In this document: in pieces, positions 14,215 to 40,946 of the stretch
Layout of the letters: each line of letters opens with the position of its first letter
How positions within the stretch are numbered: position 1 is the stretch's first letter
DNA from: Candidatus Zhuqueibacterota bacterium
Lineage (GTDB): Bacteria; Zhuqueibacterota; Zhuqueibacteria; Thermofontimicrobiales; Thermofontimicrobiaceae
Reading direction: 5' to 3'
DNA length: 46,523 nt
NCBI GenBank assembly: GCA_049322915.1
Contig: JBMOPW010000039.1
Span: 1-46,523, forward strand
Notes under the pieces: generated by a model
What the model was told of the DNA's origin: nothing
The model's input: the letters and a program-made list of their open reading frames with translations, nothing else
Databases searched by the model: none
Translations under genes and position numbers: made by a program

Positions 14215-14669
14215 CGCATGAATCCTGGCTGGAAATTCAAAGGAAATCAAATCGATTCAGTGCCGTGATATGGAGATATGCAGGGAGGCATGCGGAGGGA
14301 CGTTTTTTGGAACACAATGCAGCCCGCGTCGATCGAGGCGCTTTCAGGCAAAGATCGCCATCGCATCGGGACAGGCCGACTGAGTAAATCAGCTCATTTG
14401 AATCGTGATGTTCAATTCGATGATCGGGACTTCGCTTCAATGAAACATATCCCGGCGAGCGCATTGCTTGATCTGTGTCGAAGCGTGAAATTGAAAAATA
14501 TGGCGCCGGTTCATTTTGTCCAATTCATCAAATTGAATTTTTCTTGTATCAAAATTTCCCTGAAGATACCTCCATAAGAGTGCTTAAATTGTCCGGCGTG
14601 ATGGGCTTTCAATGAATCAATCATCTGAATGCCGTGATAGTCGTCTAAGTCCCATTCAAACCTTGACGT

Positions 14670-15007: not shown

Positions 15008-16276
15008 TCAAAACCAAAATCCAATGCCCAGGGCCAGGTTCAATCCATGCTGGTTGCTCAGAAAGAACCCGCCGTTGTTGCTCACTCCGAAGTCCAGGGC
15101 GAATGCGCCGAGTTTCAGTCCAAACCCACATGCGCTGATGAAGCCTTCTTTACCGCCCACTGCAAAACCGGTTCGCAACGGCAGCCACGAGAGGGGCGTG
15201 TACAGCAACCCCAGGGCCATCTGCGGCACGAGCGAAGTCCCTGGCCGGTTATTCAAGCCCTGAATATAATCTGCTGCGACAGCGAGGTTTTTATAGTGGT
15301 AGACAACTCCCAATCGCATTTCAGCGGGCAGGGTCGATGATGTGGTGCTTTTTAGCGATTCAGCTTCGACTGTCTTGAAAATGGAATCAGTGTCTGTGTC
15401 TTCCACAATTTCGAGCGTCACCGGATCCATGTTGAATGAGTAGAAGTTCTCGGTCGCATCCTGGTGCCATTGAATATTGCTGATGATGTTTTTGAACGCC
15501 AGACTCGCTGTCCATGTGTGATTGATTTCCGAAGCCACACCAATGTCAAAGCCAATACCTTTGCCGCTGCCGGCATATTCTGTTGTAATCAGGCCATTCG
15601 CTTCCATGCCATCGATGGTTGTCGTCATGTACCCTTTGGCGTCCTTCACATTCATGAAACCGAACCCCTGCAAATACTTGATGGTTGCGCCCACGGCGAA
15701 TTTTTTCACGCGGGAAATATGCAGGGGCAGAGCGCCGCTCAAATTATAACTGAGCACTGCGAATCCCTGTCCGTCTGAGTTGCCGAACGTGTACATTTTG
15801 TCCATCTCATTTCCGCGGAAAAGAATTTCGACAAAATTTTTATCGAGTTGCAGATCGGTGCAAAATAGCCCCTCGATGGAAAATGCCATATGCCCGGACG
15901 CGAAGCTCAGCACCTGCGATTCCGTGTTGATGCCCAGTCTCAATCCATCCGCGGGAATGCTATGGAGGATATCGTCGATGTCACCCGGTGTGAGCTGAGC
16001 GCCGTTGTACAGATCATACTGACTTTTGCTGAAGCTGTTATTCAGCACGCCAACCCCCATGTGAAATACGTTGACAGAGTAGCGATTCTTTTTAGTCAAT
16101 ACCAGATTTGCCGGATTCCAGAGAGGAGATTCAAATCCCCGCGCCATGCCAATATAGGCGCCAGCCATGCCAACGCTGCGCGGATTGGACAGGTGGGAGA
16201 TGGCCATGAGGCCGGAGCCGCATGGTACGAGCGTGAAAACAACCACTATAATAATGAAAGCTATTCTATTTTTCAT
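15008..16276 (-). CDS. Outer-membrane beta-barrel protein (DUF5723 / PorV-FadL-TraF-like)
   Basis: Signal peptide, RSVGMAGAY...WNPANL N-terminal motif, amphipathic strands (GIGFDIG, LPLRTG), and C-terminal aromatic residue (GIGFWF). Confidence 0.75.
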   Translation of the reverse strand: MKNRIAFIIIVVVFTLVPCGSGLMAISHLSNPRSVGMAGAYIGMARGFESPLWNPANLVLTKKNRYSVNVFHMGVGVLNNSFSKSQYDLYNGAQLTPGDIDDILHSIPADGLRLGINTESQVLSFASGHMAFSIEGLFCTDLQLDKNFVEILFRGNEMDKMYTFGNSDGQGFAVLSYNLSGALPLHISRVKKFAVGATIKYLQGFGFMNVKDAKGYMTTTIDGMEANGLITTEYAGSGKGIGFDIGVASEINHTWTASLAFKNIISNIQWHQDATENFYSFNMDPVTLEIVEDTDTDSIFKTVEAESLKSTTSSTLPAEMRLGVVYHYKNLAVAADYIQGLNNRPGTSLVPQMALGLLYTPLSWLPLRTGFAVGGKEGFISACGFGLKLGAFALDFGVSNNGGFFLSNQHGLNLALGIGFWF

Positions 16277-16306: not shown

Positions 16307-18343
16307 CTACTTCGTATCTTCTCCGCCGACGTTGATTTTGAGGACGGAATACAACTGTATGGTGATGTAATCCGAGGTCATGACGTGAACAGCAGTGCCA
16401 TCCGACCCGGGGAAAATTGCTTCAATGCCCGTGAAAACCCTGTCGTTCTCAAATATCTGCAAATCTTCTTTTGTCAGGCTCAGCGTCAATTCATTCAGCG
16501 AAGCATTTGATGTGTAGCCGGCCGCATCCACTGGCGCTGGTTTAATATCCAGCGGTCCAATGATCAGCTCCGGTTTGGAATAGACTGTGGAATCCTGCGT
16601 ACTCAGTTTCGCTACAATGATAGCGCCGAAGGGCATTTTATTGGTGATTCGCGCGACCACCTGGCCGGACATCAGTCGGTCGTGAATGGTTTCCTGGCTA
16701 TCTTCTTCAATATCCAGCGTATCGATATCGGACGTAGCTGTCTGAGTGGGAAAGGATAACGACAGCGGCGCCGTGATATTGATGCTGCCCTCGATGTAAT
16801 CGGACTGCTCCACAGAGCCGGGACTGCTGTTGTCTCCCAATTGTACCGAACCGGATACCAGAATTTGCTTTGGCAATGCGTTCATGAACTCGATGACGTT
16901 ACTGTTGCTTTTGTCAAGGACGATCGTGGTGGTTCGGCTGCCTCCTTCAGGCGCTGGCAGAATACTCTCCTGCACCTGCAAATTGACCGTTCGGCCGGCG
17001 TCGTTTATTCCCTGAATGGTAATATCGCTGTGCGCCGGAAAGTTGATCGTGTTGTCAATTTCCAGGCGGATAATGGCGTTGACCAATTTCACGCTATCCA
17101 GTTCATCTGAAAAATTCAGGTCTTCTGAAAAAGGCTCGAACTCGATGGTAATGTCGTTCAATATGCCGGTGATCTCCGAGAAAAGAATGTCGCTGCTCGA
17201 AAGTTGGGCCAGAAACTGGTCGGAGTTACGAACATGCACTAAGGTGTTTGAAGATTCGGTGACAAAGGTCCATTCAACCCTGATTTTCTGTTCCCCAACC
17301 TCCGCGCGTTCTGGCCGGAGGACAAGTCCCTGCAACGGGATGGAGAATTGAGAATGGCTTTCGTCTGAAAGGTACAGAGAATCGGTGTATGGCTGGCCAT
17401 TCCTGTAGAAGTCGGATAATTGATAGATAAGTTTCCCGGGGATAGACAGCAAGTTATCGATTGCGAAATTCAATTGACCGGATTGAATGATGGCCGTCTC
17501 AATGCTGACGGAGTCATCGATTGCAATGGTCTCCTGGCTGGTGGTGCGAATTGAAGGGATTTTTGCCACGGCTTCCCTCACGGCGAACGTGGAAAAGCTC
17601 GCCGTTATTTCGATGGAACTGTAGGCGTCAATCATGACGGATGCGCCTTTGCTGCCCGACGATGAGCCAGCCAATAGCAACTTGAGCTGATTTGAAAAAC
17701 GCTTCCCGCTGACATCAACGGTCGTGTTGGCGACTTCGCCGGGTGCGATTTCCCGATAAAAAGAAGTTTCGCCGATGAGTGTATCGGATGGGACGTCGAT
17801 CAGCCTGAGGACGAAATCGGAACCCAACCACACTGGGAGACCATTGGTGAGGTTGAGGAACACCGTTCCTGAATCGATCACTATCCACGAAAATTCCTCG
17901 AATGTTGGAAAAGTCGATGTCACATCGGGAATTAAAAACTCCGGAATAACAGCCGTGACTCCGTGCATGGCTTCGGCGTCGCTGAAGATTGTTGTAAAGG
18001 GATAGGATAGGGTTGATGATTCCAGCGCTTCGATTTGAAATGAACCTACATTGGCCTCGAAGTTTTCATCGAAACCATCGATATGCAATTTATCACCCAC
18101 AGTGTAACGCTCGATATCCCGCGAGAAATCAAAATACACTTGCCCGGTTGAATCGGACATCAGGTGTTTCTCGTCACTGACGATTTCATCCATGTGAAAC
18201 GTCTTATTGATGAGAGGCAGTGTAATATTCGTCTCCCACGAGGGCGCGGCAGGTGGATCAAATGAACAGGATAGCAGAAGGAGAAGGGAAAATAGCGCAA
18301 TGTTCATTCGTCGGAGTGTGGCTTTATCTAATAAATAACTCAT
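16307..18343 (-). CDS. Hypothetical acidic, beta-rich lipoprotein
   Basis: Lipobox-like LLLLLSC and RBS GAGGTG. Lies 30 bp upstream of the beta-barrel gene on the same strand. Confidence 0.75.
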   Translation of the reverse strand: MSYLLDKATLRRMNIALFSLLLLLSCSFDPPAAPSWETNITLPLINKTFHMDEIVSDEKHLMSDSTGQVYFDFSRDIERYTVGDKLHIDGFDENFEANVGSFQIEALESSTLSYPFTTIFSDAEAMHGVTAVIPEFLIPDVTSTFPTFEEFSWIVIDSGTVFLNLTNGLPVWLGSDFVLRLIDVPSDTLIGETSFYREIAPGEVANTTVDVSGKRFSNQLKLLLAGSSSGSKGASVMIDAYSSIEITASFSTFAVREAVAKIPSIRTTSQETIAIDDSVSIETAIIQSGQLNFAIDNLLSIPGKLIYQLSDFYRNGQPYTDSLYLSDESHSQFSIPLQGLVLRPERAEVGEQKIRVEWTFVTESSNTLVHVRNSDQFLAQLSSSDILFSEITGILNDITIEFEPFSEDLNFSDELDSVKLVNAIIRLEIDNTINFPAHSDITIQGINDAGRTVNLQVQESILPAPEGGSRTTTIVLDKSNSNVIEFMNALPKQILVSGSVQLGDNSSPGSVEQSDYIEGSINITAPLSLSFPTQTATSDIDTLDIEEDSQETIHDRLMSGQVVARITNKMPFGAIIVAKLSTQDSTVYSKPELIIGPLDIKPAPVDAAGYTSNASLNELTLSLTKEDLQIFENDRVFTGIEAIFPGSDGTAVHVMTSDYITIQLYSVLKINVGGEDTK

Positions 18344-18812: not shown

Positions 18813-19067
18813 ATGGCGCATCATAAATCGGCGATTAAACGAATTGAAACGAACTTGAAACAGAATCGAAGAAATGTAAGCTACAAATCATTGCTGAAAA
18901 CCTCGATAAAAAAAGTGCTGAATATTTCTGATAAAGAAACGATTCAAGTTGAGTTGAAAAAAACGAATTCATTGCTGGATAAATTAGCAGCGAAGCGTAT
19001 CATTCACAAGAACAAAGCAGCCAATCAAAAATCGCGATTGGCCAAACACGCGAATTCGCTGAATTAA
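18813..19067 (+). CDS. rpsT: 30S ribosomal protein S20
   Basis: MAHHKSAIKRI...LDKLAAKRIIHKNKAANQKSRL, 84 aa and basic. RBS AAGGA. Confidence 0.97.
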   Translation: MAHHKSAIKRIETNLKQNRRNVSYKSLLKTSIKKVLNISDKETIQVELKKTNSLLDKLAAKRIIHKNKAANQKSRLAKHANSLN

Positions 19068-19649: not shown

Positions 19650-20957
19650 ATGGGAAAAAATATTCACTTGGAACCGGTCTCCGACCAGCAGCGCTGGACA
19701 GAACTTTTCCGTCAATGCAGTCGAGTCGATTTTATGCAGACATGGCAATATGGTCTGGCCATTCATCAAAGCATTCAATGGGAGCCCAGCCGTCAGGTCG
19801 TCCTCCTGGACAATGCTCCGATTGCACTGGCGCAGACGCTTGTAAAAAATGTCCCCACAATCGGGACGATTGCCAGAATCCAGCACGGCCCATTGTTTTT
19901 TACAAGCGAGAAAAAGGTGCTGGATGAGCATACAAAAATGGCCATTGATGCGCTCTGGACATACTGGGTAGAACAGCGCGGTATGAGTCTCCACGTGACT
20001 CCGTGTGTATTGCCTGATGACCTGCCGGAAAATTGGTATGCGTCGACCCGATTGGCGCCCTCCCGAGAGGTGCTCTGGGCATCGGTGCGGATCGATCTGA
20101 GGAATCAGCCGCAGCGCCTTCGCGAACAGATGAAGCGTAAGTGGCGCTATTCCCTCCGCAAGGCCGAAGAGATGGAACTCACGCTGGAAATGGGCATGAA
20201 CGAGAGCGATCTCAGGTACTTTTTGGACAGGTACCGGCAGACCTCATCCGAAAAGGGAATCACGTGGCCATCCCCGGACCTGATTCACGCGTTGTGGCGT
20301 CTGGGCGATGCGGATATGAAGCTGATTTTCGCGCAAAAAAATGGGGAACGGATTGGCGCAATGGTTCTATTCCCGTACGCGGATTCCGTGGTCGGACTGG
20401 TCGCCTGGAATGGTCCCCTGGCGCCGCAATACCACGCCCACAATTTTCTCATCTGGCAATCGGTGTTACTCTGCCAGAAGCTGGGATTCCGTTGGTTCGA
20501 CCTGGGTGGAATAGACGAGGTCAATTTGCCGGGAATCACCCAATTCAAGCTCGGATTTGGGGGCGAAACCTATCAGTACATTGGCAATTATGAGGCGAAA
20601 CCCGGGGCATTACATCAACAAACGCATGGCGCAGTGGACTTCCAGACGTACGATTCCTTCATCCCCGGACTGCATCTCTCATTGGAAAACACTTCCGGCA
20701 ATGATACCATCATGGCTGAGGTGGAGAAAATCGTGCGGGATTTGGTCCGGCAGACCACTGGCTGGGATGGCGAATTCGACGCCCGTTTTTCCCTCATCAA
20801 CAGCGGTCTCATCGACTCACTCAGCATGGTGAGCGTCATCCAGGAGTTGATTCGTAAATTTGATATAGATATACAGCCACAGGAAATCACCATTGATAAT
20901 TTTGATACCGTGGAAGCAATTGGACATTTAGTCACGACAAAAATAGCGCAGAATTGA
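19650..20957 (+). CDS. FemAB/FemX-type GNAT transferase fused to a C-terminal DltC-like acyl carrier protein
   Basis: FMQTWQYG, IQHGP, KWRYSLRKA, and WFDLGGID...GITQFKLGFGG are Fem-family motifs. C-terminal LINSGLIDSLSMV...ITIDNFDTVEAI is an ACP with the Ppant Ser codon at 20817-20819. RBS GAGGAG precedes ATG 19650; the ORF is open from 19599. Confidence 0.82.
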   Translation: MGKNIHLEPVSDQQRWTELFRQCSRVDFMQTWQYGLAIHQSIQWEPSRQVVLLDNAPIALAQTLVKNVPTIGTIARIQHGPLFFTSEKKVLDEHTKMAIDALWTYWVEQRGMSLHVTPCVLPDDLPENWYASTRLAPSREVLWASVRIDLRNQPQRLREQMKRKWRYSLRKAEEMELTLEMGMNESDLRYFLDRYRQTSSEKGITWPSPDLIHALWRLGDADMKLIFAQKNGERIGAMVLFPYADSVVGLVAWNGPLAPQYHAHNFLIWQSVLLCQKLGFRWFDLGGIDEVNLPGITQFKLGFGGETYQYIGNYEAKPGALHQQTHGAVDFQTYDSFIPGLHLSLENTSGNDTIMAEVEKIVRDLVRQTTGWDGEFDARFSLINSGLIDSLSMVSVIQELIRKFDIDIQPQEITIDNFDTVEAIGHLVTTKIAQN

Positions 20958-21059
20958 TGCAGCGGATGTCCGTCCCATTCCACGAGCAGGATTCATGTTG
21001 CCGGGCGATGAAATGCCCGTCGCTCAATCGATACATCACTTTTCACGCTGATCTGAGAT

Positions 21060-22499
21060 ATGAATTTCAATTCGTTTATATTTGCCATTTTCTTCTTCGT
21101 CGTTTATGCGCTCTATCTGGTGTTGAAGCATAAATCCCAGAACAGAATGCTGCTGGTAGCCAGTTGCCTGTTTTACAGCTTCTGGGATTGGCGTTTTTTA
21201 GGATTAATTTTTCTCTCAATCCTGGTCGACTATTTTTGCGCCATGCGCATTGAGCAGCATCAATCGAAAATCATTCGAAAAAGGTATCTGGCTCTGAGCA
21301 TTGTATTCAATCTTTCCGTCCTCAGCTTTTTCAAATATTTCAATTTCTTTGTCGATAGCTGCATCTCGTTCTGCTCGTTGATTGGGCTTAATTTATCCCC
21401 GCCAGCGCTCCACATTCTTTTGCCGGTCGGCATTTCGTTCTACACATTCAAAACCATGAGCTACACCATTGATGTCTATCGGAAGCAGGTGCAGCCGACG
21501 CATAATTTCCGGGACTATGCCCTCTATGTCATCTTTTTCCCGCAACTGGTGGCCGGCCCAATCGAACGAGCGAAAAATCTTCTCCTGCAAATCGCTCAGC
21601 CTCGTACCCTGACCCATGAAAAATTGACCCAGGGCTTTACGCTCATCTACTGGGGGCTGTTCAAAAAAGTGTTCATCGCGGATAATCTGGGCGCGATTTT
21701 AGGATTCTACAACAGTTCCCAGACCGCCGGCGATTTGAGCCAGGACGGTGGGATGATTTTAGCAACGACCTACATGTTCCTGTTCCAGCTCTATTGCGAC
21801 TTTTCTGCGTACTCGGACATGGCCCGGGGAATCGGCAAGCTCATGGGCTTTGAACTCATGGTCAATTTCCGATCTCCGTTTTATGCGAAGAATATCCAGG
21901 AGACCTGGAGTCGCTGGCACATCAGTTTGACAACCTGGATCCGCGACTACATCTATTACCCGCTGGCCACCATGAAAATAGGAAAGCGCTTTTTGAATGT
22001 GAATGTCGTGGTCATGACCACGTTCCTCATCATCGGATTGTGGCACGGCGCTTCGTGGAATTATGTGCTCTGGGGCGGGTATAACGGCATGGTGATGATA
22101 CTTTATTCCATCTTTGTCAGGGAGACGCGACGGTTCAGGAAAAAGAAACCGGCGTACCTTGCGGCGCCATTGCATGTGTTGTCCGTGATTACGACGTTCA
22201 ACGTAGCAGCCGTTGGATTGCTGTTCTTCCGGGCCGAATCGGTTCAACAAATTTCAACCTGGGTCTATCTTCTGTTCGCCAATTTTTCATTGAGCGCAGA
22301 TGCGCTGGAATTATTCTTCAAAATGCTGTTGTTCATTTCGCCGTTGCTGGTAGTCGAGTTTTACCTTTTTAAGAAGGATGATATTACCCAACTGTTGCAC
22401 GTTCATCCGGTTCTGCGATACGGGTTTTTCTACCTGACGTTCTATTTGCTGGTTGTCATGCGGGCGCAGTCGGATACATTTATCTACTTTCAATTTTGA
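21060..22499 (+). CDS. MBOAT family O-acyltransferase (AlgI/DltB-like)
   Basis: LPVGISFYTF, FFPQLVAGPIER, YCDFSAYSDMA, WSRWHISL, GLWHGASW (catalytic His), and C-terminal FIYFQF. Confidence 0.93.
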   Translation: MNFNSFIFAIFFFVVYALYLVLKHKSQNRMLLVASCLFYSFWDWRFLGLIFLSILVDYFCAMRIEQHQSKIIRKRYLALSIVFNLSVLSFFKYFNFFVDSCISFCSLIGLNLSPPALHILLPVGISFYTFKTMSYTIDVYRKQVQPTHNFRDYALYVIFFPQLVAGPIERAKNLLLQIAQPRTLTHEKLTQGFTLIYWGLFKKVFIADNLGAILGFYNSSQTAGDLSQDGGMILATTYMFLFQLYCDFSAYSDMARGIGKLMGFELMVNFRSPFYAKNIQETWSRWHISLTTWIRDYIYYPLATMKIGKRFLNVNVVVMTTFLIIGLWHGASWNYVLWGGYNGMVMILYSIFVRETRRFRKKKPAYLAAPLHVLSVITTFNVAAVGLLFFRAESVQQISTWVYLLFANFSLSADALELFFKMLLFISPLLVVEFYLFKKDDITQLLHVHPVLRYGFFYLTFYLLVVMRAQSDTFIYFQF

Positions 22500-22755
22500 G
22501 TGCATGATCCACGGATGCCGAAAGACGCCGGATCGATTTTTGGCGCTGCTCAGTGATCTTCAACTGGGGTGATGGCTGAATAGCGCGGTGCATCATTGAT
22601 TTCATTGGGAGCATGCGCAGCGAACGAGCCAAAGAATTCTGTCTGGCGCATCGTTCGTGGCGTCATTTCAGTCACACGGGGGGAACCGATTTCGGAACGA
22701 CTTTGATGATTCCACAGGAAAAAACTTGGCAAACTTACTTCGCTACATAGCATCC

Positions 22756-23952
22756 GTGAAGCGGTTTCTTCTGGTGCTGGGCGCATTTTGTCTGATTGAA
22801 ATTGCACTGGCGCACATCCTACCGGCAATCATTCCGCAGCGATGGTATTTTCGTATGTACCTCCCCTGGGAAGCGATGAAAAAGACCGAATTGTTTTTGA
22901 GCAGCCAATTCAATATCATACCAAGTCCGGACCTGGGCTGGCGGAATAAACCGAATGCAGTGATGAATAAAATACAGTACGATCATTACGGCTCCCGCTC
23001 GCATGGGGGAATTGTGTCCGATGCCCGAAAGCCCATGCGCATTGTTTTCATGGGCGATTCGCGGATTGGCGGATATAATAATTTAGCGAATGATGAAACC
23101 GTCAGCGCCTATCTGGAACATGGCGACCTGGAAACCCTGAATTTCGCCACAAACCTCTATGGCCTGGACCAGGTCTTTCTGGCGCTGCCGAAATGTTTGA
23201 GTCAATTCACGCCTGATGTGGTGGTCGTGGCCATCGGCTCGGACATCGGTCAGGCGTTGAATTGCGTGTACCTGCCGCTGACGGACAGGAATGTTGGCGC
23301 GCCGCTGTTGAAACCGCGATTCTTTTTGCAGGACGGGCAACTCACCTGCCTGAGGCCTGAGGTATGCAACCTGCTCCAGAATATTCCCAACAATCCGTCG
23401 CTTCTGGAATTTATTGAAAAGAACGATGGCCATTATTTTGTTTTTAAGCATTTTCAGCGGAAGGAAACCCTGCCTTTTCTATCGCTGTTTTCACTCATCC
23501 AGGCCAATATCGCTTATGTGAAGCAGCAAATTGATTATCATCTCGGAAGACCATCTTGGGCGTCTGTTACCAATGAAAAACTGGCAGCGAAAATTTTGAA
23601 CCAAATGGAATCGGAGGCTGAGGCGCGGAATGTCAGGTTGGTTTTTTTAGTAATGCCCAAACGCAGTGAGTTGAAGTCGGGAAGCCATGCGTATCAACAG
23701 GTGGTTCACATGGCCGATTCGTTAGGATTGCGTTATATCGATGGTCTGGCGATCTTTCAGCGGATCCGCGGCAGCGAGTCCCTGTTTTTTGATGAAGTCC
23801 ATCTGCTGGCAAAAGGCAATCAGGTATTGGCCAGCCAGTTGATGGAATGGTTGGGGCCATCCACGCGCTTCGCAGTGGAAAATCAGATTTCAGTCGATAA
23901 AAAATTCTCCGGGACGCGGATGGCTGAGGAAGTTGAGCGGGCTGGCCGTTGA
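22756..23952 (+). CDS. Membrane-anchored SGNH/GDSL-fold protein (AlgJ/DltD-like acyl-transfer partner)
   Basis: N-terminal TM segment, IVFMGDSR (block I), NFATNLYGLDQ (block II-like), and FFDEVHLLAKGN (DxxH). The ORF is open from 22657, with a likely GTG start at 22756. Confidence 0.78.
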   Translation: MKRFLLVLGAFCLIEIALAHILPAIIPQRWYFRMYLPWEAMKKTELFLSSQFNIIPSPDLGWRNKPNAVMNKIQYDHYGSRSHGGIVSDARKPMRIVFMGDSRIGGYNNLANDETVSAYLEHGDLETLNFATNLYGLDQVFLALPKCLSQFTPDVVVVAIGSDIGQALNCVYLPLTDRNVGAPLLKPRFFLQDGQLTCLRPEVCNLLQNIPNNPSLLEFIEKNDGHYFVFKHFQRKETLPFLSLFSLIQANIAYVKQQIDYHLGRPSWASVTNEKLAAKILNQMESEAEARNVRLVFLVMPKRSELKSGSHAYQQVVHMADSLGLRYIDGLAIFQRIRGSESLFFDEVHLLAKGNQVLASQLMEWLGPSTRFAVENQISVDKKFSGTRMAEEVERAGR

Positions 23953-25107
23953 GCCGTAGGCCCCGCAATTGAAGAACACGACGAAATCGCCGGGTTCCAC
24001 CGGCTGCGAACATTCCACATTCATGGCCAGAATGTCCTGCGGCGTGCAGAGGCAGCCGGCGATGTCCAGCATGTATGTGGCAACCGGCGACCGATCCGAA
24101 TGGGCCAGAATATCCAGTTCAAAATTTCTCCGAATGATTTGCCCCATCCCGCCGGCAAGCAGGTAATTCTGATGCATGCCTCCATCGACAATGGCAAATT
24201 GCTTCGACCGAACCTGTTTTCGGTACAGGACTTTCGTGACGTAAATCCCGCTCTCGGCGACTAAGAATCGGCCGGGTTCCACAATGCGCCGGCAGCGATT
24301 CAGCAGCGAGTGGTACTCCCTGCGATGAAATAACTGATGAAGCGCCTGGCCCAACCTGTCCAGGTTCAATCTGTTTTGACCAGGAAAATAGGGGATGCCC
24401 CAGCCGCCGCCGAAATTGATCTTTTCCATAAGGAGCCCTGATGCCATTTCAAGACGTTGCGCCAGTTGGATAATGGTCTCAACGTTGACGGCGAGCGATG
24501 ACTCATCCAGCACCTGGGATCCGCTGTGGACGTGGATTCCGGTGAAATGGATTCGGCCCTGATTCTGTTTTATCCTGTCGAGACAGCGGAGCGCCTCTAT
24601 TTCATCGAGACCGAATTGCGTCTCCCCGGCCATCTTCAATCCTGACTTCACCTGACTCTGATCCGGATTCACCCGAACGCCAACATTGGGCAGACAATGA
24701 TGCTGCCGCGCGATCTGAGTAATTTTCTCCAGTTCGACGAAGTTTTCGATGTTGAGTGAACCGACGTTATTCTGAATGGCGTACTCAAGCTCATCGTCGG
24801 TTTTTCCCGGCCCGCTGAATTCGATGTTCACCGCCGGAATCCCATTTTCCAGCGCCGCTGCCAGTTCGCCGGCAGAAGCGACGTCGGCACCAACGCCGAG
24901 TTCCGCCATCAGCCTCAAAATCGCCGGATGCGGATTGGCCTTCACAGCGTAATGCGGGGAAAACAGTGCACCGAACCGTGCGAGAAATTCATGCACCCGG
25001 GCGCGAATGAGCGACGGAAAATAGAAATAGCCGGGCGTCGGATACTGCCGAAGGATGCGGAGCAGATTGGCCCGGTTGATGATGCTGTAAAAATCCTGTC
25101 TGGTCAT
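23890..25107 (-). CDS. Fold-type III PLP-dependent decarboxylase (LysA/BtrK-like; exosortase-system-associated type)
   Basis: HYAVKANP (PLP Lys), DVASAGE, GPGKT, HVHSGSQ, NFGGGWG, EPGRFLV, DGGMHQ, GCLCTPQD, and GAYGSTASPLNFLSHPRP. Confidence 0.88.
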   Translation of the reverse strand: MTRQDFYSIINRANLLRILRQYPTPGYFYFPSLIRARVHEFLARFGALFSPHYAVKANPHPAILRLMAELGVGADVASAGELAAALENGIPAVNIEFSGPGKTDDELEYAIQNNVGSLNIENFVELEKITQIARQHHCLPNVGVRVNPDQSQVKSGLKMAGETQFGLDEIEALRCLDRIKQNQGRIHFTGIHVHSGSQVLDESSLAVNVETIIQLAQRLEMASGLLMEKINFGGGWGIPYFPGQNRLNLDRLGQALHQLFHRREYHSLLNRCRRIVEPGRFLVAESGIYVTKVLYRKQVRSKQFAIVDGGMHQNYLLAGGMGQIIRRNFELDILAHSDRSPVATYMLDIAGCLCTPQDILAMNVECSQPVEPGDFVVFFNCGAYGSTASPLNFLSHPRPGEFFID

Positions 25108-26711
25108 GAGTACTTTTCCTCAAGCGCTGCGAATTGAATTTTTCCCGACGGAGTGCGCGGAAACGAATCGACGAACTCGATGCGTGTGGGTAACATGTAC
25201 GAGGGCAGTTTTGTCGAGAGATAATGGCTGAATTTGGCGCGATCCATGGGCATTGCTCCCTGCCATTGAATTTCTGCTATCAGTTCGGTTTCGCTTTCTT
25301 GCCTGCTGACCCCGAAAACAGCCGCATCTTTCACTTCGGGATGGTTCAAAATGACGTCAAGAATTTCTTTGGGATAAACGCGATTGCCTTTTACCTTGAG
25401 CATTTTGTCTCTTCGACCCAAAACATAAATAAAACCCTCTTCATCTATCGTCCCCATATCGCCGGTGAAAATAACGCTCTGGTCGAAAAGAACCGGTGGT
25501 TCCTGCATCGGATTTTTTCTCAGCTTGGCCTGCGTCGCGGCCGCGTCGCCCAGGTAGCCGGCCATCATTCCATCGCCGCGATGGATTATTTCGCCCGGTT
25601 CATTGGGCCGGCAGCGATTGCCCTGTTCATCCACAATGAAAATTTCAGTGCCGGCGACAGCGCGCCCCACTGAGTTGATTTTTCTATCGAAATCATTGGG
25701 TTTCAAAATACCGCTGCGGAAGGCTTCTGTTTGTCCGTACGTCTTGAAGATATTGACATTCGGGGCGAGGTCGCGCAGCCTGCGAAGCTGGTTTTCGGCC
25801 ATGCCGCCGCCTGAGATGGTGAAATATCGCACCTGCGACAGGCAGGACTTCACCTCGTTCGGATCATACGCCAGTAGCTCGGACCAGATGCTCGGCACGC
25901 CGGAAATTCCGGTAATGCGATAGGTCGCGATGGCACGGCAGATGTCCTGCGCCAGCCACGAATTGATAATGACGAGCTGTGCGCCGGAAAACAGGCTGGC
26001 GTACAATTGATTCAGCCCCACATCGAAGGAGAAGGGCAAAAGACTCAGTAGCCGGTCGCCTTGCGTCAGTTGAAAATCCTCGCATTCGGTGGTCACCCGG
26101 TTCAAAAGATCCTGATGGGAAATCATGACGCCTTTGGGCACGCCGGTGGAGCCGGAAGTGAACAGCAGCGCCAGCACATCCTGTTTCAGGAAAGGAGAGG
26201 TGGAGCGAAAACCGGCCCGGTCATCGGAGTCCGGCGCGATGGACTCGATGGCAGTGAATGTCCGCAATTTTTCCAGACAGGTGATATGAACCGGGGACCG
26301 GGGCTGAGCGTCGTAATGCAGGATTCGCGTGCGCGAAAGTTGGCCGGGCTGCAATTGCGACAGCCGTATCAATCCGGGATTGTCCACCAGCAAAATCGAT
26401 GACTGGCATAGTTCGACGCTGAATTGAATTTGATGAAGGCTGAGTTTGGGATTTAAACTGTAGAAGGCCGCGCTGTTTTTCAGAATAGCGAGCATGGCAG
26501 TGACGTGCTCAGGACTCCGCTGCATGAAAATACCGACGAACTGCCCCTGCCTGAGACCCAGGTTGCGCAGAACTTCAGCGAGATTGTCCGAAAAGGCTTC
26601 GAGCTGGCGATAGGTGACATCGATGCGTTTGCCCATTCCCATGTGCTGTGTCACAGCGATCGCATCGGGAATAGCTGCGGCAGTCGTTGCAATTCGTTTT
26701 AGGGCTGACAT
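25104..26711 (-). CDS. AMP-forming acyl/aminoacyl ligase (adenylation enzyme; exosortase-A-associated type)
   Basis: FTSGSTGVPKGV (A3), LPFSFDVG, YGQTEAFR, FTGDMG, GRRD, and RTPSGKI (A10). Overlaps the decarboxylase start by 4 nt (ATGA). Confidence 0.88.
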   Translation of the reverse strand: MSALKRIATTAAAIPDAIAVTQHMGMGKRIDVTYRQLEAFSDNLAEVLRNLGLRQGQFVGIFMQRSPEHVTAMLAILKNSAAFYSLNPKLSLHQIQFSVELCQSSILLVDNPGLIRLSQLQPGQLSRTRILHYDAQPRSPVHITCLEKLRTFTAIESIAPDSDDRAGFRSTSPFLKQDVLALLFTSGSTGVPKGVMISHQDLLNRVTTECEDFQLTQGDRLLSLLPFSFDVGLNQLYASLFSGAQLVIINSWLAQDICRAIATYRITGISGVPSIWSELLAYDPNEVKSCLSQVRYFTISGGGMAENQLRRLRDLAPNVNIFKTYGQTEAFRSGILKPNDFDRKINSVGRAVAGTEIFIVDEQGNRCRPNEPGEIIHRGDGMMAGYLGDAAATQAKLRKNPMQEPPVLFDQSVIFTGDMGTIDEEGFIYVLGRRDKMLKVKGNRVYPKEILDVILNHPEVKDAAVFGVSRQESETELIAEIQWQGAMPMDRAKFSHYLSTKLPSYMLPTRIEFVDSFPRTPSGKIQFAALEEKYS

Positions 26712-27309: not shown

Positions 27310-28782
27310 TTAATTGGTCATCAGTTTATAATTAGGCGCCTCTTTTGTAATGATCACACTGTGCGGATGATTTTCTCGAACTGTCGCCTGGGATACTTTG
27401 ATGAATTGAGATTTCTCCTGGAGTTCGGGGATGGTTTTCACGCCGCAATACCCCATAGCTGCTTTCAATCCGCCAACCATCTGATAGATCGTTTCGCTCA
27501 ATGAGCCGCGGTAGGGCACTCGGCCTTCGATGCCTTCCGGAACGAGTTTCTTCGTCTCATCGGAATCCTGGAAATAGCGATCGCTGCTACCTTGCTTCAT
27601 CGCGGCGATAGAGCCCATACCACGGTACACTTTGTAGCTTCGGCCATCGAGGAAAATCGTTTCCCCGGGACTCTCCTGGGTTCCGGCAAATAAATTGCCA
27701 ATCATAACCGAGTCAGCGCCGGCAGCGATGGCTTTGGCTATGTCGCCGATTTGTTTGATGCCCCCATCTGCAATCAGCGGAATGTTATATTTCGAACAAA
27801 CTGCAGCGCAATCCATGATCGCCGTTATCTGAGGAACGCCGACACCTGTAACGACGCGGGTGGTGCAGATGCCGCTGGGCCCAATGCCGACTTTTATTGC
27901 ATCGACGCCGGCTTTGATCAAATCTTCGGCTGCTTCGGCTGTGGCAATATTGCCGGCAATAACTTCCATATCCGGGTATTTCTTTTTCAAATTGATCACC
28001 GCTTTGGCAACAGCTTCGTGATGCCCGTGAGCGGTATCCACAACGAGCACATCAACCCCGGCTTCCATGAGCGCGGCAGCGCGATCATCTCTGTCCGGCC
28101 CGACGCCAATCGCAGCTCCAACGCGCAACCGACCGTGGATATCTTTAGAGGCATTGGGATAATTCTTCTTCTTCTGTATGTCTTTGACAGTGATCAATCC
28201 CTTCAAGCGATTTTGATCATCAACGACGAGCAATTTTTCTATTTTATGCTTCTGTAAAATCTTCTCAGCCAATTCGAGCGTTGTGCCGATGGGCGCTGTG
28301 ACCAGATTCTCTTTGGTCATCACTTCTTTGATTTTCAGTTTCAAATTCGTTTCGAATCGCAGGTCGCGGTTGGTGAGTATGCCCACTAATTTATCATTTT
28401 CAACAACCGGGATTCCCGAGATATGATACTTTTCCATGACGCTGATTGCCTCTCCGATGTTGGCGTCGGGCGCCATGTAAATTGGTTTGAGTATCATTCC
28501 ACTCTCGGATCGTTTCACGCGGTCCACTTCATCCGCCTGCTTTTCGATGGGCAGGTTCTTGTGAATGATACCGATGCCCCCCTCGCGCGCGATGGCAATG
28601 GCCAGTTCTGATTCTGTCACGGTATCCATGGCGGCGCTGACGAGCGGTATGTTGAGCCAGATATTTTTCGTGAGTCGAGTCTGTGTCTCCGCCATTTTAG
28701 GAAGGACTTGTGATTTCGCCGGAATGAGCAGTACATCATCAAACGTAATTCCTTCTTTCACTATTTTATTTTTTTCCTGCAT
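27310..28782 (-). CDS. guaB: IMP dehydrogenase
   Basis: [22 protein letters not shown] pair, [25 protein letters not shown], and [14 protein letters not shown] precedes the start at 28782; the ORF is open to 28845. Confidence 0.97.
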
Positions 28783-29612
28783 GGGATGCTCCAATTTTGT
28801 GATAATAAGTTTCGTCTCACAGCCTGGTAAGATAATACATTTCAATACCCGGCATCTTGCTATGATGATTCATGATAAAAACGCGCCCAGTGATTTCGAT
28901 GAATATCTGAGATTTACACGCCCCATTTATTTTCTGGTCGACAGTAGTAACTGCCTGCTACAGTTCCTCATTGAAATTGATGTGCCATTATAATAATTAT
29001 TTGAATAATAATCAACCTTTTTCATACAGCAGTCGAGATTCGCATTCATCAAAATTCAACTTCGGGGATATCTGTCCTTCTTGTGCCAGCGTTATTGGAA
29101 AGATAAGGGTGTTGAATTTATTCTATGAAGGTGGAAGAAATTTGCATTCCTCCATCCTGAAACAGCGGCGATCTCATCTCCTGAGCAAAGTAATTACAAT
29201 TATGTTATTGAATCTTAATCATGATTTAACCTATCCGTAATTTGATTCAATTATTATGATATGGAAATGAAGTATTGATGAATCATTGTAAGATAGTTTC
29301 AGAATATTCTGAAAATACAACCTGAGAGCAAAAAAATATTTTGCAAAGAGGCATTATATCTATTTATTATTTTTGGAAATGAAAAAAGTGCGAAATGATA
29401 TTATGAAATTGCCTGAATGATGAATTGCAAGCAAGTCAATCGAAAAGGGAATGCGGCTGATGCGATCACAGAATTTCTTTCAAAGATATCTGGAAAAAAT
29501 CGATTATAAATATTAATGGGTTAAAGCTGTTTCTCTGAACTCCTTCGGCCACATTGTAAAATGAATAGACAGTCATATATTATTCGCAATATAAAAAAAA
29601 TGAAAAAATCGC

Positions 29613-30022: not shown

Positions 30023-30931
30023 TTGAGAATCAAAAAAGGAATTTTGTTCTTGATACTTCTGGTGTCGGGAGTTACCCTGTATGGTCAGGAGCGCAGAATA
30101 AAACCTGGCGATGTCATCGAAATTATAGTCGCTGATAATGTCGCTTTGAGCCAGAGTGTGGTAGTTCGCTCCAATGGCACAGTGGAATATCCAACGCTCC
30201 AGGACCTTCCAGTTGATGGCATCACTTTGAACAGATTCCAGGAATTGCTGATCACGCAATTATCACGATTTTTGGAGACATCCCCGCTTGTCCTGGTTCG
30301 TTTTGGTGAGAGCTACCCGATACGAGTGACAGTTCTGGGCCAGGTTGTAATGCCCGGGTTGTACACGATAGCAAACACTGCCACTTTGCAGGGCGCGATC
30401 GGAGCCGCGGGAGGGTTAACTCCTGGAGCACAATTATCAAAGGTGAAACTAATCAGGGATAACAGCGGCAGCAAGGAAAATATCATCATCAACATGGAAA
30501 ATTTTTACAAGAATGGCGATCCATCCGCCTTGCCTTTGCTCAAAGAAGGGGATACAATTGTAATTCCTGGCAATCCACTGGCCACAAATGTCAAGGTGTT
30601 AGGATGTGTGGAAAATCCCGGCAGTTACGATGTGCTTTTTCAGACGACAATTCTGGATGTGATTTTCATGGCGGGCGGACCAACCGAAGATGCCAATTTG
30701 AAAAAGGTGAAAATTATTTCGCTCACCGGCCAGGATGCCCGGGATGTTAAAATAGATATTGATGAATTAATGCATTCAAAGACGTATATAAATATTCCAA
30801 TTGTTGTGCCGGGCGATGTGGTGTACATACCGAAGAAGAAGTTAAATTGGTCGGGTATTATGACTGTGATTCGGGATCTCACCGCTTTTGCGACCCTGTA
30901 TTATATCATCTATCGTTCGAGTGGTAGCTAA
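30023..30931 (+). CDS. wza: Polysaccharide export protein (Wza-like; Poly_export + SLBB domains)
   Basis: IKPGDVIEI, VRSNGTVEYP, two SLBB repeats (VLGQVVMPG...AGG, VLGCVENPG...AGG), and a C-terminal amphipathic helix. TTG start with RBS GAGG. Confidence 0.85.
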   Translation: MRIKKGILFLILLVSGVTLYGQERRIKPGDVIEIIVADNVALSQSVVVRSNGTVEYPTLQDLPVDGITLNRFQELLITQLSRFLETSPLVLVRFGESYPIRVTVLGQVVMPGLYTIANTATLQGAIGAAGGLTPGAQLSKVKLIRDNSGSKENIIINMENFYKNGDPSALPLLKEGDTIVIPGNPLATNVKVLGCVENPGSYDVLFQTTILDVIFMAGGPTEDANLKKVKIISLTGQDARDVKIDIDELMHSKTYINIPIVVPGDVVYIPKKKLNWSGIMTVIRDLTAFATLYYIIYRSSGS

Positions 30932-31069
30932 TTTGATTAACAAGTACCAATTTTTTGACAGGACTTGCAGATTCATTTCAGGGAGTCTTAGTTCTTATTA
31001 ATTCACCGATCTAAAATATATAAGTATTTTTGTATATGTAAGAGTTATTTAGGGACATCAAGAAATCCT

Positions 31070-33310
31070 ATGAAGAATACAATGAACCCAAATTTTCAAG
31101 TACCTGTTACCGATTTTGAATCACAGTTGCAACAGATGGTTCAACAGGAAAAATCTATTTTTTATGATTACTTTCGGATAATACGTAATCGAAAATGGAC
31201 AATATTAATTTGCTTGGTTATAGCACTTATTCCAACGATTATTTGGAATCAACTATCAACGCCTATTTATGAAGCTGAAGCGATGATCATTTATGAAGAA
31301 CCGAAAGAATCAATGTTTGCTTTAGATGTCGGTCAACCGTTTTATAATCGAAGCGCCATTATTAATTTAACTGAACAGATCAAAAGTAGAACTCTCGCCA
31401 CGGAAGTTGCATTGTCTATGCCCGATGATATTGTGAATACGTTTAACTTTCCAGATGATCCCCCCCCGGGATTCACAAAGCATAGATATATTGCCGCGAT
31501 ATTGAAAAAGAACCTGGTTGTTAAATCTGTTCGTGGTGGTGAGATTTTGACTTTGAGTATCAGAACCAACCATCCTGAAAGTGCGAAGATGGCTATTAAT
31601 GGTTATATCGAGCGATTGATTGACTGGAATTTGAAAAAGAAACGCGCAGAAGTGACAAGCGTAAAGGATTTTGTTGAAAATCAATTGAGTGTATTTGAAA
31701 ACAAGTTGAACAAGGCGGAAGTCGCTCTGCAAGCGTACAAAGAAAAGAATGCGATGATTTCGCTGAGTGAAAGCTCCACGCAGATTCTTAGCCGAATGAC
31801 AGAGGCAGAGATTGCCTACAACCAAGCCAAAGCTGAACGAGAGGCATTGGAACAGAGAAGAAATTATATCGAAAAAAAGAAATCTGAAATGGCGCCAACT
31901 TTATCGATGCCTCAAAGTACGCGTTCTAAGGATTTGAAAGAGGAATTGGCGGGACTTGAAGAACAATATTCCTCTTTTCAACTACAACAAACGGAAGCGG
32001 ATCAACATGAGCGACTGGCTTTGCGAGACAAAATTGACCTTACAAAGCAGCAGTTGATTGCAGAATTATCACGTAATGCACAGCGAGAGAACTTATTAGA
32101 TCCTTTATCTCAGGGTAGAAGTTTGCTACAGGAATCGATAACTCTTGATGTCGACCTGGAAACTTACAAAGCGCGAGAAAATGGTCTAAAAAAAATATTA
32201 GAAGAGTATGAATTACAGTTACAATCACTTCCGGGACAGGAACTGCAACTCGCGCATCTCATCAGGGAAAAAGAGGTAAACGATAAAGTCTATTCAATAC
32301 TTCTTGAAAAACGGGAGGAAGCGCGAATCACTGAGGCAGCCAAGGTAGGTGATATTCAGATAATCGATCCTGCTGAACGGCCCATTCGTCCCAAACGACC
32401 CGATAAAACAATGAATTTAGTTATAGGATTTTTATCGGGTTTAGGATTGGGATTTATACTAGCGTTTTTGTTGAATTCCCTTGATACGTCTATAAAATCC
32501 CAGGAGGATATTGAAAGGTATATTAATTTACCAATCTTGGCGGCCATTCCCAGAATAAGCCAGAATGGAGTTTTGGCGATCAACAAGACCAGGCATTCAA
32601 AACAATTTTATTCCAATAAGCTATTATCCAATTTTGAAAATATCCCACATTTCTATGAGGCGTACCGTACTCTTCAATTGAATTTAGCATTTGCCAGTAC
32701 AGATCACAAAATTTCATCTATTATTTTAACAAGCGCTGGAGCGGGTGAAGGGAAATCGCTGACTGCCATTAATATGGCCCAAATGTTTGCTAAAACCGGA
32801 ACGAAAACAATATTGGTGGATTGCGATTTAAGGCGACCGATGGTTCATAAGATACTCGATTTGAAACAGGAACCAGGTTTGACCAATCTTTTGATCAATA
32901 AATCGACCGAATGGGAAAGTGTCGTCCAGAGGCTGAGCAACAGTGATCTTTCAATTATCACCAGTGGAACTTTGCCTCCCAATCCATCGGAAATGCTTTC
33001 ATCGCAGAGTATGAAAGACCTTATTGAAAAACTGAAAAATCACTCTGAACTACTTATCCTGGATGCTCCGCCAATCATTGCCGTAAACGATTCAATGATT
33101 CTCAGTAAGAATATCGATGGCGTTTGTTTTGTAGTGAGGTCCGAAAAAGCAAAACGGGACGCTGTTCAGCGAGCGAAAAGCATCTTACAAACACAGGGCA
33201 TAAAAATTTTCGGCGTAATATTGAATGATGTCAACCTGAAAAGTCAGTACGGTTATTACAAAGATTACTATTATTATTCTCACGATAAAAAAAAGAAACG
33301 TAAAGCGTAG
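31070..33310 (+). CDS. wzc: Polysaccharide co-polymerase / BY-kinase (Wzc/GumC)
   Basis: Two TM segments around a coiled-coil periplasmic domain, Walker A TSAGAGEGKS, VDCDLRRP, LPPNPSE, LDAPP, and C-terminal Tyr cluster YGYYKDYYYY. Confidence 0.93.
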   Translation: MKNTMNPNFQVPVTDFESQLQQMVQQEKSIFYDYFRIIRNRKWTILICLVIALIPTIIWNQLSTPIYEAEAMIIYEEPKESMFALDVGQPFYNRSAIINLTEQIKSRTLATEVALSMPDDIVNTFNFPDDPPPGFTKHRYIAAILKKNLVVKSVRGGEILTLSIRTNHPESAKMAINGYIERLIDWNLKKKRAEVTSVKDFVENQLSVFENKLNKAEVALQAYKEKNAMISLSESSTQILSRMTEAEIAYNQAKAEREALEQRRNYIEKKKSEMAPTLSMPQSTRSKDLKEELAGLEEQYSSFQLQQTEADQHERLALRDKIDLTKQQLIAELSRNAQRENLLDPLSQGRSLLQESITLDVDLETYKARENGLKKILEEYELQLQSLPGQELQLAHLIREKEVNDKVYSILLEKREEARITEAAKVGDIQIIDPAERPIRPKRPDKTMNLVIGFLSGLGLGFILAFLLNSLDTSIKSQEDIERYINLPILAAIPRISQNGVLAINKTRHSKQFYSNKLLSNFENIPHFYEAYRTLQLNLAFASTDHKISSIILTSAGAGEGKSLTAINMAQMFAKTGTKTILVDCDLRRPMVHKILDLKQEPGLTNLLINKSTEWESVVQRLSNSDLSIITSGTLPPNPSEMLSSQSMKDLIEKLKNHSELLILDAPPIIAVNDSMILSKNIDGVCFVVRSEKAKRDAVQRAKSILQTQGIKIFGVILNDVNLKSQYGYYKDYYYYSHDKKKKRKA

Positions 33311-35170: not shown

Positions 35171-35223
35171 TAAAAATTTGATAAGCTCTTCTTACTTATA
35201 CCGCATGAATGAGGAGAAATGGA

Positions 35224-40942: not shown

Positions 40943-40946
40943 AAAT

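Follow-up and report, generated by a model that had tools for sequence, protein, structure and literature searches.

What do an adenylation enzyme, a pyridoxal 5′-phosphate (PLP) decarboxylase, a carrier domain fused to a Fem-like transferase, an MBOAT and an SGNH protein accomplish when their genes stand together in a single bacterial locus? This question is raised by a five-gene cassette at positions 19,650 to 26,711 of contig JBMOPW010000039.1 of Candidatus Zhuqueibacterota bacterium (assembly GCA_049322915.1). The window, i.e., the whole stretch of DNA that was analysed (46,523 nucleotides), is the entire 46.5-kb contig (C39) of a 6.25-Mb assembly that is 96.3% complete. In the cassette, the genes of the Fem-carrier fusion, the MBOAT and the SGNH protein (the triad) converge on those of the adenylation enzyme (the ligase) and the decarboxylase (the pair). 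The answer proposed here, to which we assign a probability of roughly 0.55, is that the cassette would encode a carrier-fed MBOAT-SGNH pathway with on-carrier decarboxylation, by which an acyl group carrying an amine is attached to a polymer of the envelope. This answer is carried by what is established below: which domains and catalytic motifs are present, how the homologues rank and which genes occur together.

An original prediction, made from the letters of the window, had named the five genes and their domains, a 63-bp overlap between the convergent SGNH and decarboxylase genes and a coupling of ligase and decarboxylase, all of which were confirmed by open reading frame (ORF) calls, Pfam and the sequence itself; the coupling is a 4-bp ATGA overlap, read as translational coupling of the two genes. 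Among the profile families that it had proposed for the cassette, PP-binding, MBOAT and Lipase_GDSL match above their cut-offs, whereas TIGR03098, TIGR03099 and TIGR03019 match below theirs. The adenylase-carrier-MBOAT-SGNH logic that it had recognised is supported by the motifs, by synteny and by an operon of Gemmatimonadales, and BtrK-like on-carrier decarboxylation, its central proposal, by the position of BtrK as top solved relative of the decarboxylase, by features of the ligase that are typical of VinN and side-chain-carboxyl activation, and by the occurrence of such pairs next to carriers elsewhere.

Candidate loading and decarboxylation steps

The decarboxylase matches the Pfam models Orn_Arg_deC_N (162 bits) and Orn_DAP_Arg_deC (55.5 bits), and in NCBIfam it scores 362 bits with TIGR03099 (cut-off 478) versus 262.5 bits with lysA. 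Among solved structures, BtrK (7ru7/2j66), the decarboxylase of L-glutamyl-[BtrI carrier protein], comes first with 241 bits and an E-value of 1.4e-70, compared with 160 bits for the best diaminopimelate decarboxylase in the Protein Data Bank (PDB). This ranking points to a BtrK-like decarboxylase of the on-carrier type. Trios of an adenylase, a carrier and a PLP decarboxylase that produce 4-aminobutyryl (GABA)- or β-alanyl-carrier from glutamate or aspartate tethered by the side chain are described in the available text of PMC11350588 and PMC7857480 for butirosin (BtrJ/I/K), fluvirucin (FlvN/L/O) and closthioamide (CtaD/E/F). When the decarboxylase dimer was modelled together with the carrier domain of the cassette, the predicted complex scored 0.45, which counts as weak support, versus 0.01 for the best of three controls; at least 95% of the contacts agreed among runs and the predicted local distance difference test (pLDDT) value of the partners was 78 or higher. 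Of the 157 solved complexes used to calibrate these scores, 116 reached the mark, as did 2 of 215 mismatched pairs; at scores of 0.60 or less, just 18 of the 157 and both passing mismatches did so.

The ligase is a stand-alone adenylation enzyme (AMP-binding 271.6 bits, AMP-binding_C 41.3 bits) whose PDB match list is headed by adenylation (A) domains of non-ribosomal peptide synthetases (NRPS). In NCBIfam it scores 423 bits with TIGR03098 (cut-off 592) and 260.9 bits with TIGR01733, and the two DltA models stay below their cut-offs (TIGR01734, 186.7 versus 559.85; NF003417, 189.3 versus 476). When the PDB is searched with residues 205–350, CmiS6 and HitB match best and DltA, IdnL1 and VinN stand lower in the list; for the loop segment, residues 290–360, VinN is the best match and aligns without a gap (FTISGGG...YGQTEAFRSGI in the ligase, FTNSAAA...YGQTECKRISI in VinN). 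According to the available text of PMC11253843, VinN binds 3-methylaspartate or aspartate as a β-amino acid, with a loop one residue shorter than that of α-amino-acid domains, with D230 holding the amine and with K330/R331 and S299 shaping the site. The VinN residues D230, F231, S299, K330 and R331 correspond to D230, V231, S300, F331 and R332 of the ligase, which carries a two-residue deletion directly after TEA relative to the α-type A domain of LgrA and whose specificity residues are kept in five orthologues; CmiS6 and HitB have small residues at the position of Arg332. Because the loop aligns ungapped to that of VinN and D230, S300 and R332 are kept, activation of the β-carboxyl of aspartate is favoured, with Arg332 holding the α-carboxylate that would later be removed and β-alanyl-S-carrier as the product. 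This is a preference rather than a call, as K330 and F231 of VinN are not conserved, and glutamate may instead be converted to GABA, since the ligase departs from VinN at two of the five positions and glutamate is the amino acid on which BtrK acts.

A transferase domain fused to its carrier

The carrier resides in the C-terminal domain of the first protein of the triad. The start of this fusion is the ATG at 19,650 in the database copy and in all orthologues; a longer frame opens at 19,599. Its Fem part scores 51.8 bits with FemAB (cut-off 24) and 37.8 bits with Acetyltransf_6, and the isolated C-terminal 86 amino acids (aa), used as query, score 24.7 bits with PP-binding (cut-off 20.8). TIGR03019, the FemAB family associated with XrtA, reaches 28.6 bits versus a cut-off of 260. 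The 25 matches of the fusion fall into 17 clusters (40–100% identity), and in the alignment of these 17 members D389-S390-L391, K300 and many residues of the Fem domain are invariant and F299 is nearly so. When the profile of the family is compared with the PDB, peptidyl and aminoacyl carrier proteins and DltC chains rank above fatty-acid acyl carrier proteins (ACPs), and FemX is matched as well. The AlphaFold2 (AF2) model of the fusion (pLDDT 83.6) has FemX, FemA, Sba18/Sbb17 and MprF domains as top Foldseek matches (FemX, E-value 1.3e-17, TM-score 0.73 on the target); those of the Fem domain are all aminoacyl-tRNA-dependent transferases. K300 lies about one residue from FemX Lys305 as projected, the profile alignment itself stopping at FemX residue 295. 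Both the role of this lysine and the F-K pair of DhpH-C are described in the available text of PMC12945691, as is PacB, which adds alanine from Ala-tRNA to an NRPS-bound chain.

The original prediction had named a FemAB-ACP protein, whose domains are borne out, and had given the FemX-fold domain no role. By analogy, this domain would probably add a tRNA-borne amino acid to the amine freed by decarboxylation; direct charging of the carrier from tRNA is the alternative. Amine-protection steps exist in the vicenistatin and butirosin pathways. More specifically, the FemX-fold domain may extend the group on its own carrier via aminoacyl-tRNA, or charge the carrier in genomes that lack the ligase, so that a dipeptidyl unit (e.g., aminoacyl-β-alanyl) would be exported via the tyrosine shuttle of the MBOAT, a proposal that we consider tentative and more doubtful than not. 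A fusion of a Fem-family protein with a carrier domain was not found described in the literature, subscription journals not being covered.

Predicted export of the acyl group

The MBOAT is the only one of the genome. It scores 77.9 bits with the Pfam model (cut-off 27) and 175.7 bits with the DltB model TIGR04091 (cut-off 375), and all 11 complete orthologues, that of the window included, end in [FY][IF]YFQF. This sequence fits the FXYXXF motif, the tyrosine of which is acylated in PatA and DltX as an acyl-tyrosine shuttle, and MBOAT/SGNH systems with a fused shuttle motif are said to have no carrier protein (both according to the available text of PMC12148441). Because the MBOAT ends in the PatA-type motif, it is better read as a carrier-fed hybrid of the PatA type than as a copy of the Dlt system with an MBOAT of the DltB type.

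The SGNH protein reaches 24.1 bits with Lipase_GDSL (cut-off 23.6), and S135, N162, D379 and H382 are invariant across seven orthologues. Its AF2 model (pLDDT 80.5) has generic SGNH/GDSL esterases as Foldseek neighbours, and the tail past about residue 400 is non-conserved and of low model confidence.

Proposed mechanism

The route is inferred in each of its chemical steps, as are its substrate, its target and what the Fem domain does. The adenylation enzyme would activate the β-carboxyl of L-aspartate, or of a close analogue, in the manner of VinN and load it onto the phosphopantetheine arm of carrier Ser390. The BtrK/VinO-like decarboxylase would then take off the free α-carboxylate to leave β-alanyl-S-carrier, or 4-aminobutyryl-S-carrier if glutamate is the substrate. 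The FemX-fold domain would act in cis, probably by transferring the amino acid of an aminoacyl-tRNA to the liberated amine, for which either PacB acting on its NRPS-bound chain or the amine-protection steps of vicenistatin and butirosin synthesis may serve as models. The MBOAT, with His329, would shift the acyl group from the carrier thioester to Tyr476 of its own FIYFQF shuttle at the outer face; from this tyrosine the membrane-anchored SGNH protein would accept it on Ser135 and esterify a periplasmic or surface glycan.

Distribution and modularity of the cassette

The association of the carrier with the MBOAT extends beyond this genome. Twelve fusion loci were compared, eight in genome contigs (KSB1, Omnitrophota, Desulfonema magnum, Desulfobacterales and unclassified metagenome-assembled genomes, MAGs), three in metagenome contigs and that of the window. 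The MBOAT gene lies downstream of the fusion in 11 of the 11 loci with sufficient contig, and the SGNH gene is present in nine of nine. The MBOATs of the cassette form a clade (49–60% identity) distinct from 80 carrier-less relatives, which served as a negative control among the matches listed and do not include the known cassette loci: none of these 80 relatives (34–46% identity) has a carrier, Fem, decarboxylase or this SGNH gene nearby.

Whole-genome searches for the pair covered five fusion-bearing genomes, which together with that of the window and the KSB1 MAG G017 make seven. Adjacent ligase and decarboxylase orthologues (43–53% identity) occur in five of the seven. The pair adjoins the triad in this genome and in G017, lies about 8 kb away in G041, beyond TadG-like and giant LamG genes, and about 7 kb away in the Omnitrophota genome G044, beyond leucine-rich repeat and giant LamG genes, and is found on a separate short contig in G043. 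In D. magnum, the only cultured organism found to carry the triad, the adjoining ligase (25% identity) is of a non-amino-acid type, its motif being of the His type instead of FD, and a decarboxylase of 41% identity lies far away; on the metagenome contig L209 a similar unrelated ligase (27% identity) stands beside the triad; in G045 no ligase orthologue was found at E ≤ 1e-30. Because G045 and D. magnum have the triad without the pair, the pair is not obligatory for the triad. The co-conservation of all five genes that the original prediction had called for holds for five of seven fusion genomes, the core being the Fem-carrier/MBOAT/SGNH triad and the pair being frequent but exchangeable.

The pair was also followed on its own. 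The decarboxylase-family scan has at least 600 matches; 589 of the 600 listed encode relatives, and 80 loci were examined. The ligase gene lies upstream of the decarboxylase gene on the same strand in 72 of the 80, and a carrier was matched in at least 10 of the 80, tblastn being weak for small divergent carriers. On a Gemmatimonadales MAG contig, ligase, decarboxylase, carrier, MBOAT and SGNH genes follow each other in one direction, with no Fem domain. Loci of Methylomirabilota and Spirochaetales combine the pair with a carrier, an acyltransferase of the Antibiotic_NAT family, Wzx and glycosyltransferases. Since some pair-bearing loci have an Antibiotic_NAT acyltransferase and most have no MBOAT, the pair feeds several kinds of transferase. 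In all, these comparisons suggest a modular system, in which the pair would make an omega-aminoacyl-carrier donor for glycan decoration, the triad would be one outlet for it, and other ligases could feed that outlet.

Several of these loci have features of their own. In L046 (4966–9221) and L049 (852–4130), ligase, Antibiotic_NAT acyltransferase, small carrier, decarboxylase and formyltransferase genes form a string within a Wzx-glycosyltransferase locus; the Methylomirabilota decarboxylase (53%) is the closest outside the cassette clade among the matches listed, and the Methylomirabilota string has the look of another outlet for this donor, by N-acylation in the cytoplasm. In Actinoplanes sp. 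(L050, 4890–11227) a carbamoyltransferase, a Fem-carrier fusion (36%), a ligase and a decarboxylase are encoded in one direction with no MBOAT or SGNH gene, and the module may serve natural-product synthesis there. For L050 and L052, both of high GC content, frames were derived from the tblastn matches, and some of their Pfam rows are empty.

The flanks of the triad differ in every other genome, with Tad-like and LamG genes, OpgC/DUF3131/GT2 genes or housekeeping genes. TadE/TadG-like pilin-type genes bracket the triad in L015, L017 and L018; giant Laminin_G_3 proteins of about 1,700 aa separate triad from pair in L015 and L018, the contig of L017 ending earlier; and a conserved, unannotated ORF of about 246 aa lies directly upstream of the fusion in L015 and L017. 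In a Desulfobacterales MAG (L019, 275–8938), the triad stands beside OpgC, two DUF3131 proteins and a GT2, a neighbourhood that suggests periplasmic glucans as a possible target class. Among the relatives of the same taxonomic order, G017 alone has the cassette, and the convergent layout is kept in it (L013, G017:C396, 8357–15424). There, AsnA and a class I/II aminotransferase are encoded directly upstream of the ligase, and these neighbours may hint at aspartate supply.

Weighing of the evidence and alternative explanations

A number of observations weigh against the carrier-fed pathway with on-carrier decarboxylation. The activities proposed for the components are predictions from sequence and model comparison; all NCBIfam equivalog scores of the cassette proteins are under the curated cut-offs; the predicted decarboxylase-carrier complex lends weak support. 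As to the substrate, K330 and F231 of VinN are replaced by F331 and V231 in the ligase, and BtrK, the sole solved on-carrier decarboxylase relative, acts on glutamate rather than on aspartate. As to export, the SGNH protein does not particularly resemble DltD, PatB or AlgX among the Foldseek matches listed. As to co-occurrence, the triad lacks the pair in two of seven genomes (D. magnum and G045), an MBOAT is present in just four of the 80 decarboxylase-family loci, and in some loci the carrier pairs with an Antibiotic_NAT-family acyltransferase instead. Finally, in G017 the decarboxylase frame has two in-frame TAA stops and the SGNH frame ends at 298 aa, losing the DxxH block; the Fem-carrier frame of that genome extends about 95 aa past its usual end into the MBOAT gene, and these defects may reflect decay or an assembly error.

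The distribution of triad and pair bears on the idea that two independent systems abut, which we regard as unlikely. The triad would then be self-sufficient, with the Fem domain charging the carrier from aminoacyl-tRNA in a tRNA-dependent, Dlt-like fashion, and the pair would serve another pathway. G045 and D. magnum indeed have the triad and no pair, the triad of L209 adjoins an unrelated ligase, most of the 80 pair loci lack the triad and have other carriers and transferases, and the Fem domain has the fold of an aminoacyl-tRNA transferase. However, in four genomes of different named lineages (this one, the KSB1 MAG, the Omnitrophota MAG and an unclassified MAG) the pair either adjoins the triad or is no more than about 8 kb from it, the Gemmatimonadales operon joins pair, carrier, MBOAT and SGNH protein, no second carrier gene was seen in the cassette, and acylation of a thiol by a Fem transferase is not known to us. 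Alternatively, ligase and decarboxylase might act in the reverse order, so that a free substrate is decarboxylated and the ligase loads the product (β-alanine, GABA or a diamine), as DltA does with free D-alanine. Gene order and translational coupling leave the order of the reactions unfixed, and the core of the ligase resembles CmiS6, HitB and IdnL1, which activate free β-amino acids. Set against this, the carrier-dependent BtrK is 80 bits ahead of any free-substrate decarboxylase, the ligase retains the arginine that in VinN holds the α-carboxylate, a group that a decarboxylated substrate would no longer have, CmiS6 and HitB have small residues in place of this arginine, and the complex prediction (0.45) gives its weak support to contact with the carrier; decarboxylation of the free substrate appears quite unlikely.

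The most improbable of the alternatives, in our judgement, is that the acyl group never crosses the membrane, the Fem domain acylating a cytoplasmic nucleotide- or lipid-linked amino sugar while MBOAT and SGNH protein separately carry out a PatA/PatB-like O-acetylation. It would account for the fused shuttle motif of the MBOAT, typical of acetyl-CoA users, for the carriers that elsewhere adjoin cytoplasmic N-acyltransferases of the Antibiotic_NAT family and for the Actinoplanes locus, where Fem-carrier fusion, ligase and decarboxylase occur without an MBOAT. It is at odds with the adjacency of Fem-carrier and MBOAT genes in 11 of 11 loci, with the separation of this MBOAT clade from its 80 carrier-less relatives, and with the Gemmatimonadales operon, in which carrier, MBOAT and SGNH protein occur together and no Fem domain is present. 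The export of a carrier-bound, decarboxylated acyl group through MBOAT and SGNH protein is the reading with the best support.

Features and genomic surroundings

The coordinates of the cassette and of its motifs are given in Table 1.

Table 1. Genes, domains and sequence motifs of the cassette and the adjoining guaB gene (positions in the window or residues of the protein).
Feature	Position	Strand	Length and basis
Fem-like+carrier fusion	19650–20957	+	435 aa; ORF call, Pfam
FemX-fold tandem-GNAT domain	~residues 1–320 of fusion		Pfam FemAB, Acetyltransf_6, Foldseek
Disordered linker of fusion	residues 320–351		AF2 model
Aminoacyl/peptidyl-type carrier domain	~residues 352–435 of fusion		Pfam PP-binding
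Phosphopantetheine Ser390 in GLIDSLS	20817–20819	+	family alignment
MBOAT	21060–22499	+	479 aa; ORF call, Pfam
MBOAT His287		+	invariant column, 9-sequence alignment
MBOAT invariant His329 in GLWHGA	22044–22046	+	9-sequence alignment
FIYFQF acyl-shuttle hexapeptide, Tyr476	MBOAT residues 474–479, 22479–22496	+	C-terminal motif
SGNH protein	22657–23952	+	431 aa; ORF call, Pfam
SGNH N-terminal helix (membrane anchor)	~residues 35–58		AF2 model/sequence
SGNH Ser135 in GDS	23059–23061	+	7-orthologue alignment
SGNH Asn162		+	7-orthologue alignment
SGNH Asp379/His382 (DEVH)	23791–23802	+	7-orthologue alignment
SGNH/decarboxylase convergent overlap, 63 bp	23890–23952	.	sequence reading
PLP decarboxylase, BtrK-like	23890–25107	-	405 aa; ORF call, Pfam
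PLP lysine Lys56 in YAVKANP	24940–24942	-	invariant across orthologues
ATGA overlap, ligase stop and decarboxylase start	25104–25107	-	sequence reading
Stand-alone NRPS-type adenylation enzyme (ligase)	25104–26711	-	535 aa; ORF call, Pfam/NCBIfam
Ligase Asp230 in FSFD	26022–26024	-	sequence and alignment
Ligase Val231, Ser300, Lys524		-	sequence and alignment
Shortened β13-β14 loop YGQTEAFRSG, Arg332	25716–25718	-	alignment to VinN
guaB	27310–28845		IMPDH 545 bits (Pfam)

Beyond guaB lies an exopolysaccharide (EPS) locus (30,023–45,866) that encodes Wza, Wzc, a WbaP-like initiating phosphotransferase, an oxidoreductase resembling UDP-GlcNAc 3-dehydrogenase, a hexapeptide acetyltransferase, GT2s, a GT4, a GNAT and a pyruvyl transferase with an F420-dehydrogenase-like partner. 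Put forward as a possible target in the original prediction, it is a candidate for acylation by its proximity alone. The GC content of this locus is 37%, under the 5th percentile of the 1.5-kb windows of the genome. That of the cassette is 47–55% and matches the 48.8% of the genome, on which ground a horizontal acquisition of the cassette as a GC island was rejected. Promoter and terminator scans of the cassette were at or near shuffle expectation.

The host, of a diderm-type uncultivated lineage, has genes of the type IX secretion system (T9SS) and two phosphopantetheinyl transferase genes, and Pfam and NCBIfam scans found no polyketide synthase or NRPS genes in the window. The similarity of the pair to families labelled exosortase-A-associated had been pointed out in the original prediction; the label is inapplicable here, as no exosortase (PF09721) was found in the 96.3%-complete genome. 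A second, LysA-like gene lies on contig C35 and its product is 33% identical to the cassette decarboxylase. Among 41 genomes including this one, 38 of the 40 relatives have the LysA-like type alone (at most 36% identity), and the cassette-type orthologue is present in G017 alone (51%). In view of the second gene and these 38 relatives, the cassette decarboxylase is not taken for the housekeeping LysA.

On the other flank of the cassette, a small ORF (18,813–19,067) is putatively S20-like, as read from its translation. Further away, the window encodes two giant T9SS-tailed proteins, one of 1037 aa (1927–5040) and one of 1606 aa that contains a subtilisin-like region (9430–14,250), a cholesterol-oxidase-like GMC oxidoreductase (5135–6706; NF058674, 647.5 bits versus a cut-off of 850), a D-glutamate-cyclase-like protein (8375–9397; PF14336), a PorV/PorQ-like barrel (15,008–16,276) and an ORF of 678 aa that matches neither Pfam nor NCBIfam models (16,307–18,343).

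Relation to known systems

Each part of the cassette is known; the combination of parts is new to the searched literature, in which no paper describing it was found (subscription journals not covered). The pair and the carrier resemble VinN/VinL/VinO of vicenistatin synthesis, FlvN/L/O, CtaD/E/F and BtrJ/I/K, in which an adenylating enzyme, a carrier and a PLP decarboxylase handle aspartate or glutamate (available text of PMC11350588 and PMC11253843). Those pathways feed cytoplasmic polyketide, NRPS or aminoglycoside assembly, whereas the cassette would hand its product to MBOAT-SGNH export. The Fem domain shares the tandem-GNAT fold and the conserved F-K motif with transferases of the FemX/PacB type and differs from them in its fusion to a carrier, which is constant in its family, its use of tRNA being predicted from the fold. 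The XrtA/PEP-CTERM-associated families TIGR03098, TIGR03099 and TIGR03019 are the best-named NCBIfam relatives of ligase, decarboxylase and Fem protein, and the ligase-upstream-of-decarboxylase module is shared with them (72 of 80 loci). In contrast to that set, the cassette proteins score under the cut-offs in a genome in which no exosortase was found, and the Fem protein is fused to a carrier and tied to an MBOAT. For the widespread "exosortase-associated" pair in polysaccharide loci, the present reading offers a testable function, the supply of omega-aminoacyl-carrier donors for glycan decoration.

The original prediction had called the system Dlt-like, which holds for the shared logic and not for the homologues. 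As in the Dlt system (DltA/DltC/DltB/DltX/DltD), which D-alanylates teichoic acids, an adenylation enzyme would load a carrier, from which an MBOAT passes the acyl group to the tyrosine of an FXYXXF motif; an SGNH protein anchored in the membrane then receives it and esterifies a polymer of the envelope (for Dlt, available text of PMC12148441). However, the shuttle motif is fused to the MBOAT in the cassette and resides on the microprotein DltX in Dlt; the carrier forms the C-terminal part of a Fem fusion of 435 aa, whereas DltC is free-standing; a decarboxylase would edit the tethered group; the ligase is VinN-like rather than DltA-like; the cassette proteins do not reach the DltA, DltB and DltC models, scoring below cut-off with those of DltA and DltB; and the host is diderm-type. 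With PatA/PatB and AlgI-type O-acetylation the cassette shares a separate SGNH transferase and an MBOAT that is extended at the C-terminus by two helices and terminates in FXYXXF. Those systems use acetyl-CoA and, according to the available text of the PatA paper (PMC12148441), lack carrier proteins, whereas the cassette MBOAT gene is always preceded by a carrier gene.

MBOAT-SGNH acylation is now split into the carrier-fed Dlt system of Gram-positive bacteria, with its separate DltX, and the acetyl-CoA-fed PatA/AlgI systems. If the reading proposed here is true, the cassette and its relatives in KSB1, Omnitrophota, Gemmatimonadales and Desulfonema would represent a third type, in which a PatA-type MBOAT receives carrier-borne cargo edited by side-chain loading, on-carrier decarboxylation and possibly tRNA-dependent aminoacylation. 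If the Fem domain does extend the acyl group, tRNA would for the first time be seen to take part in envelope modification by an MBOAT-SGNH system, and the MBOAT would be the first carrier-fed one of PatA/AlgI architecture. A cationic β-alanyl or aminoacyl ester on a surface polymer would change its charge, as D-alanylation does.

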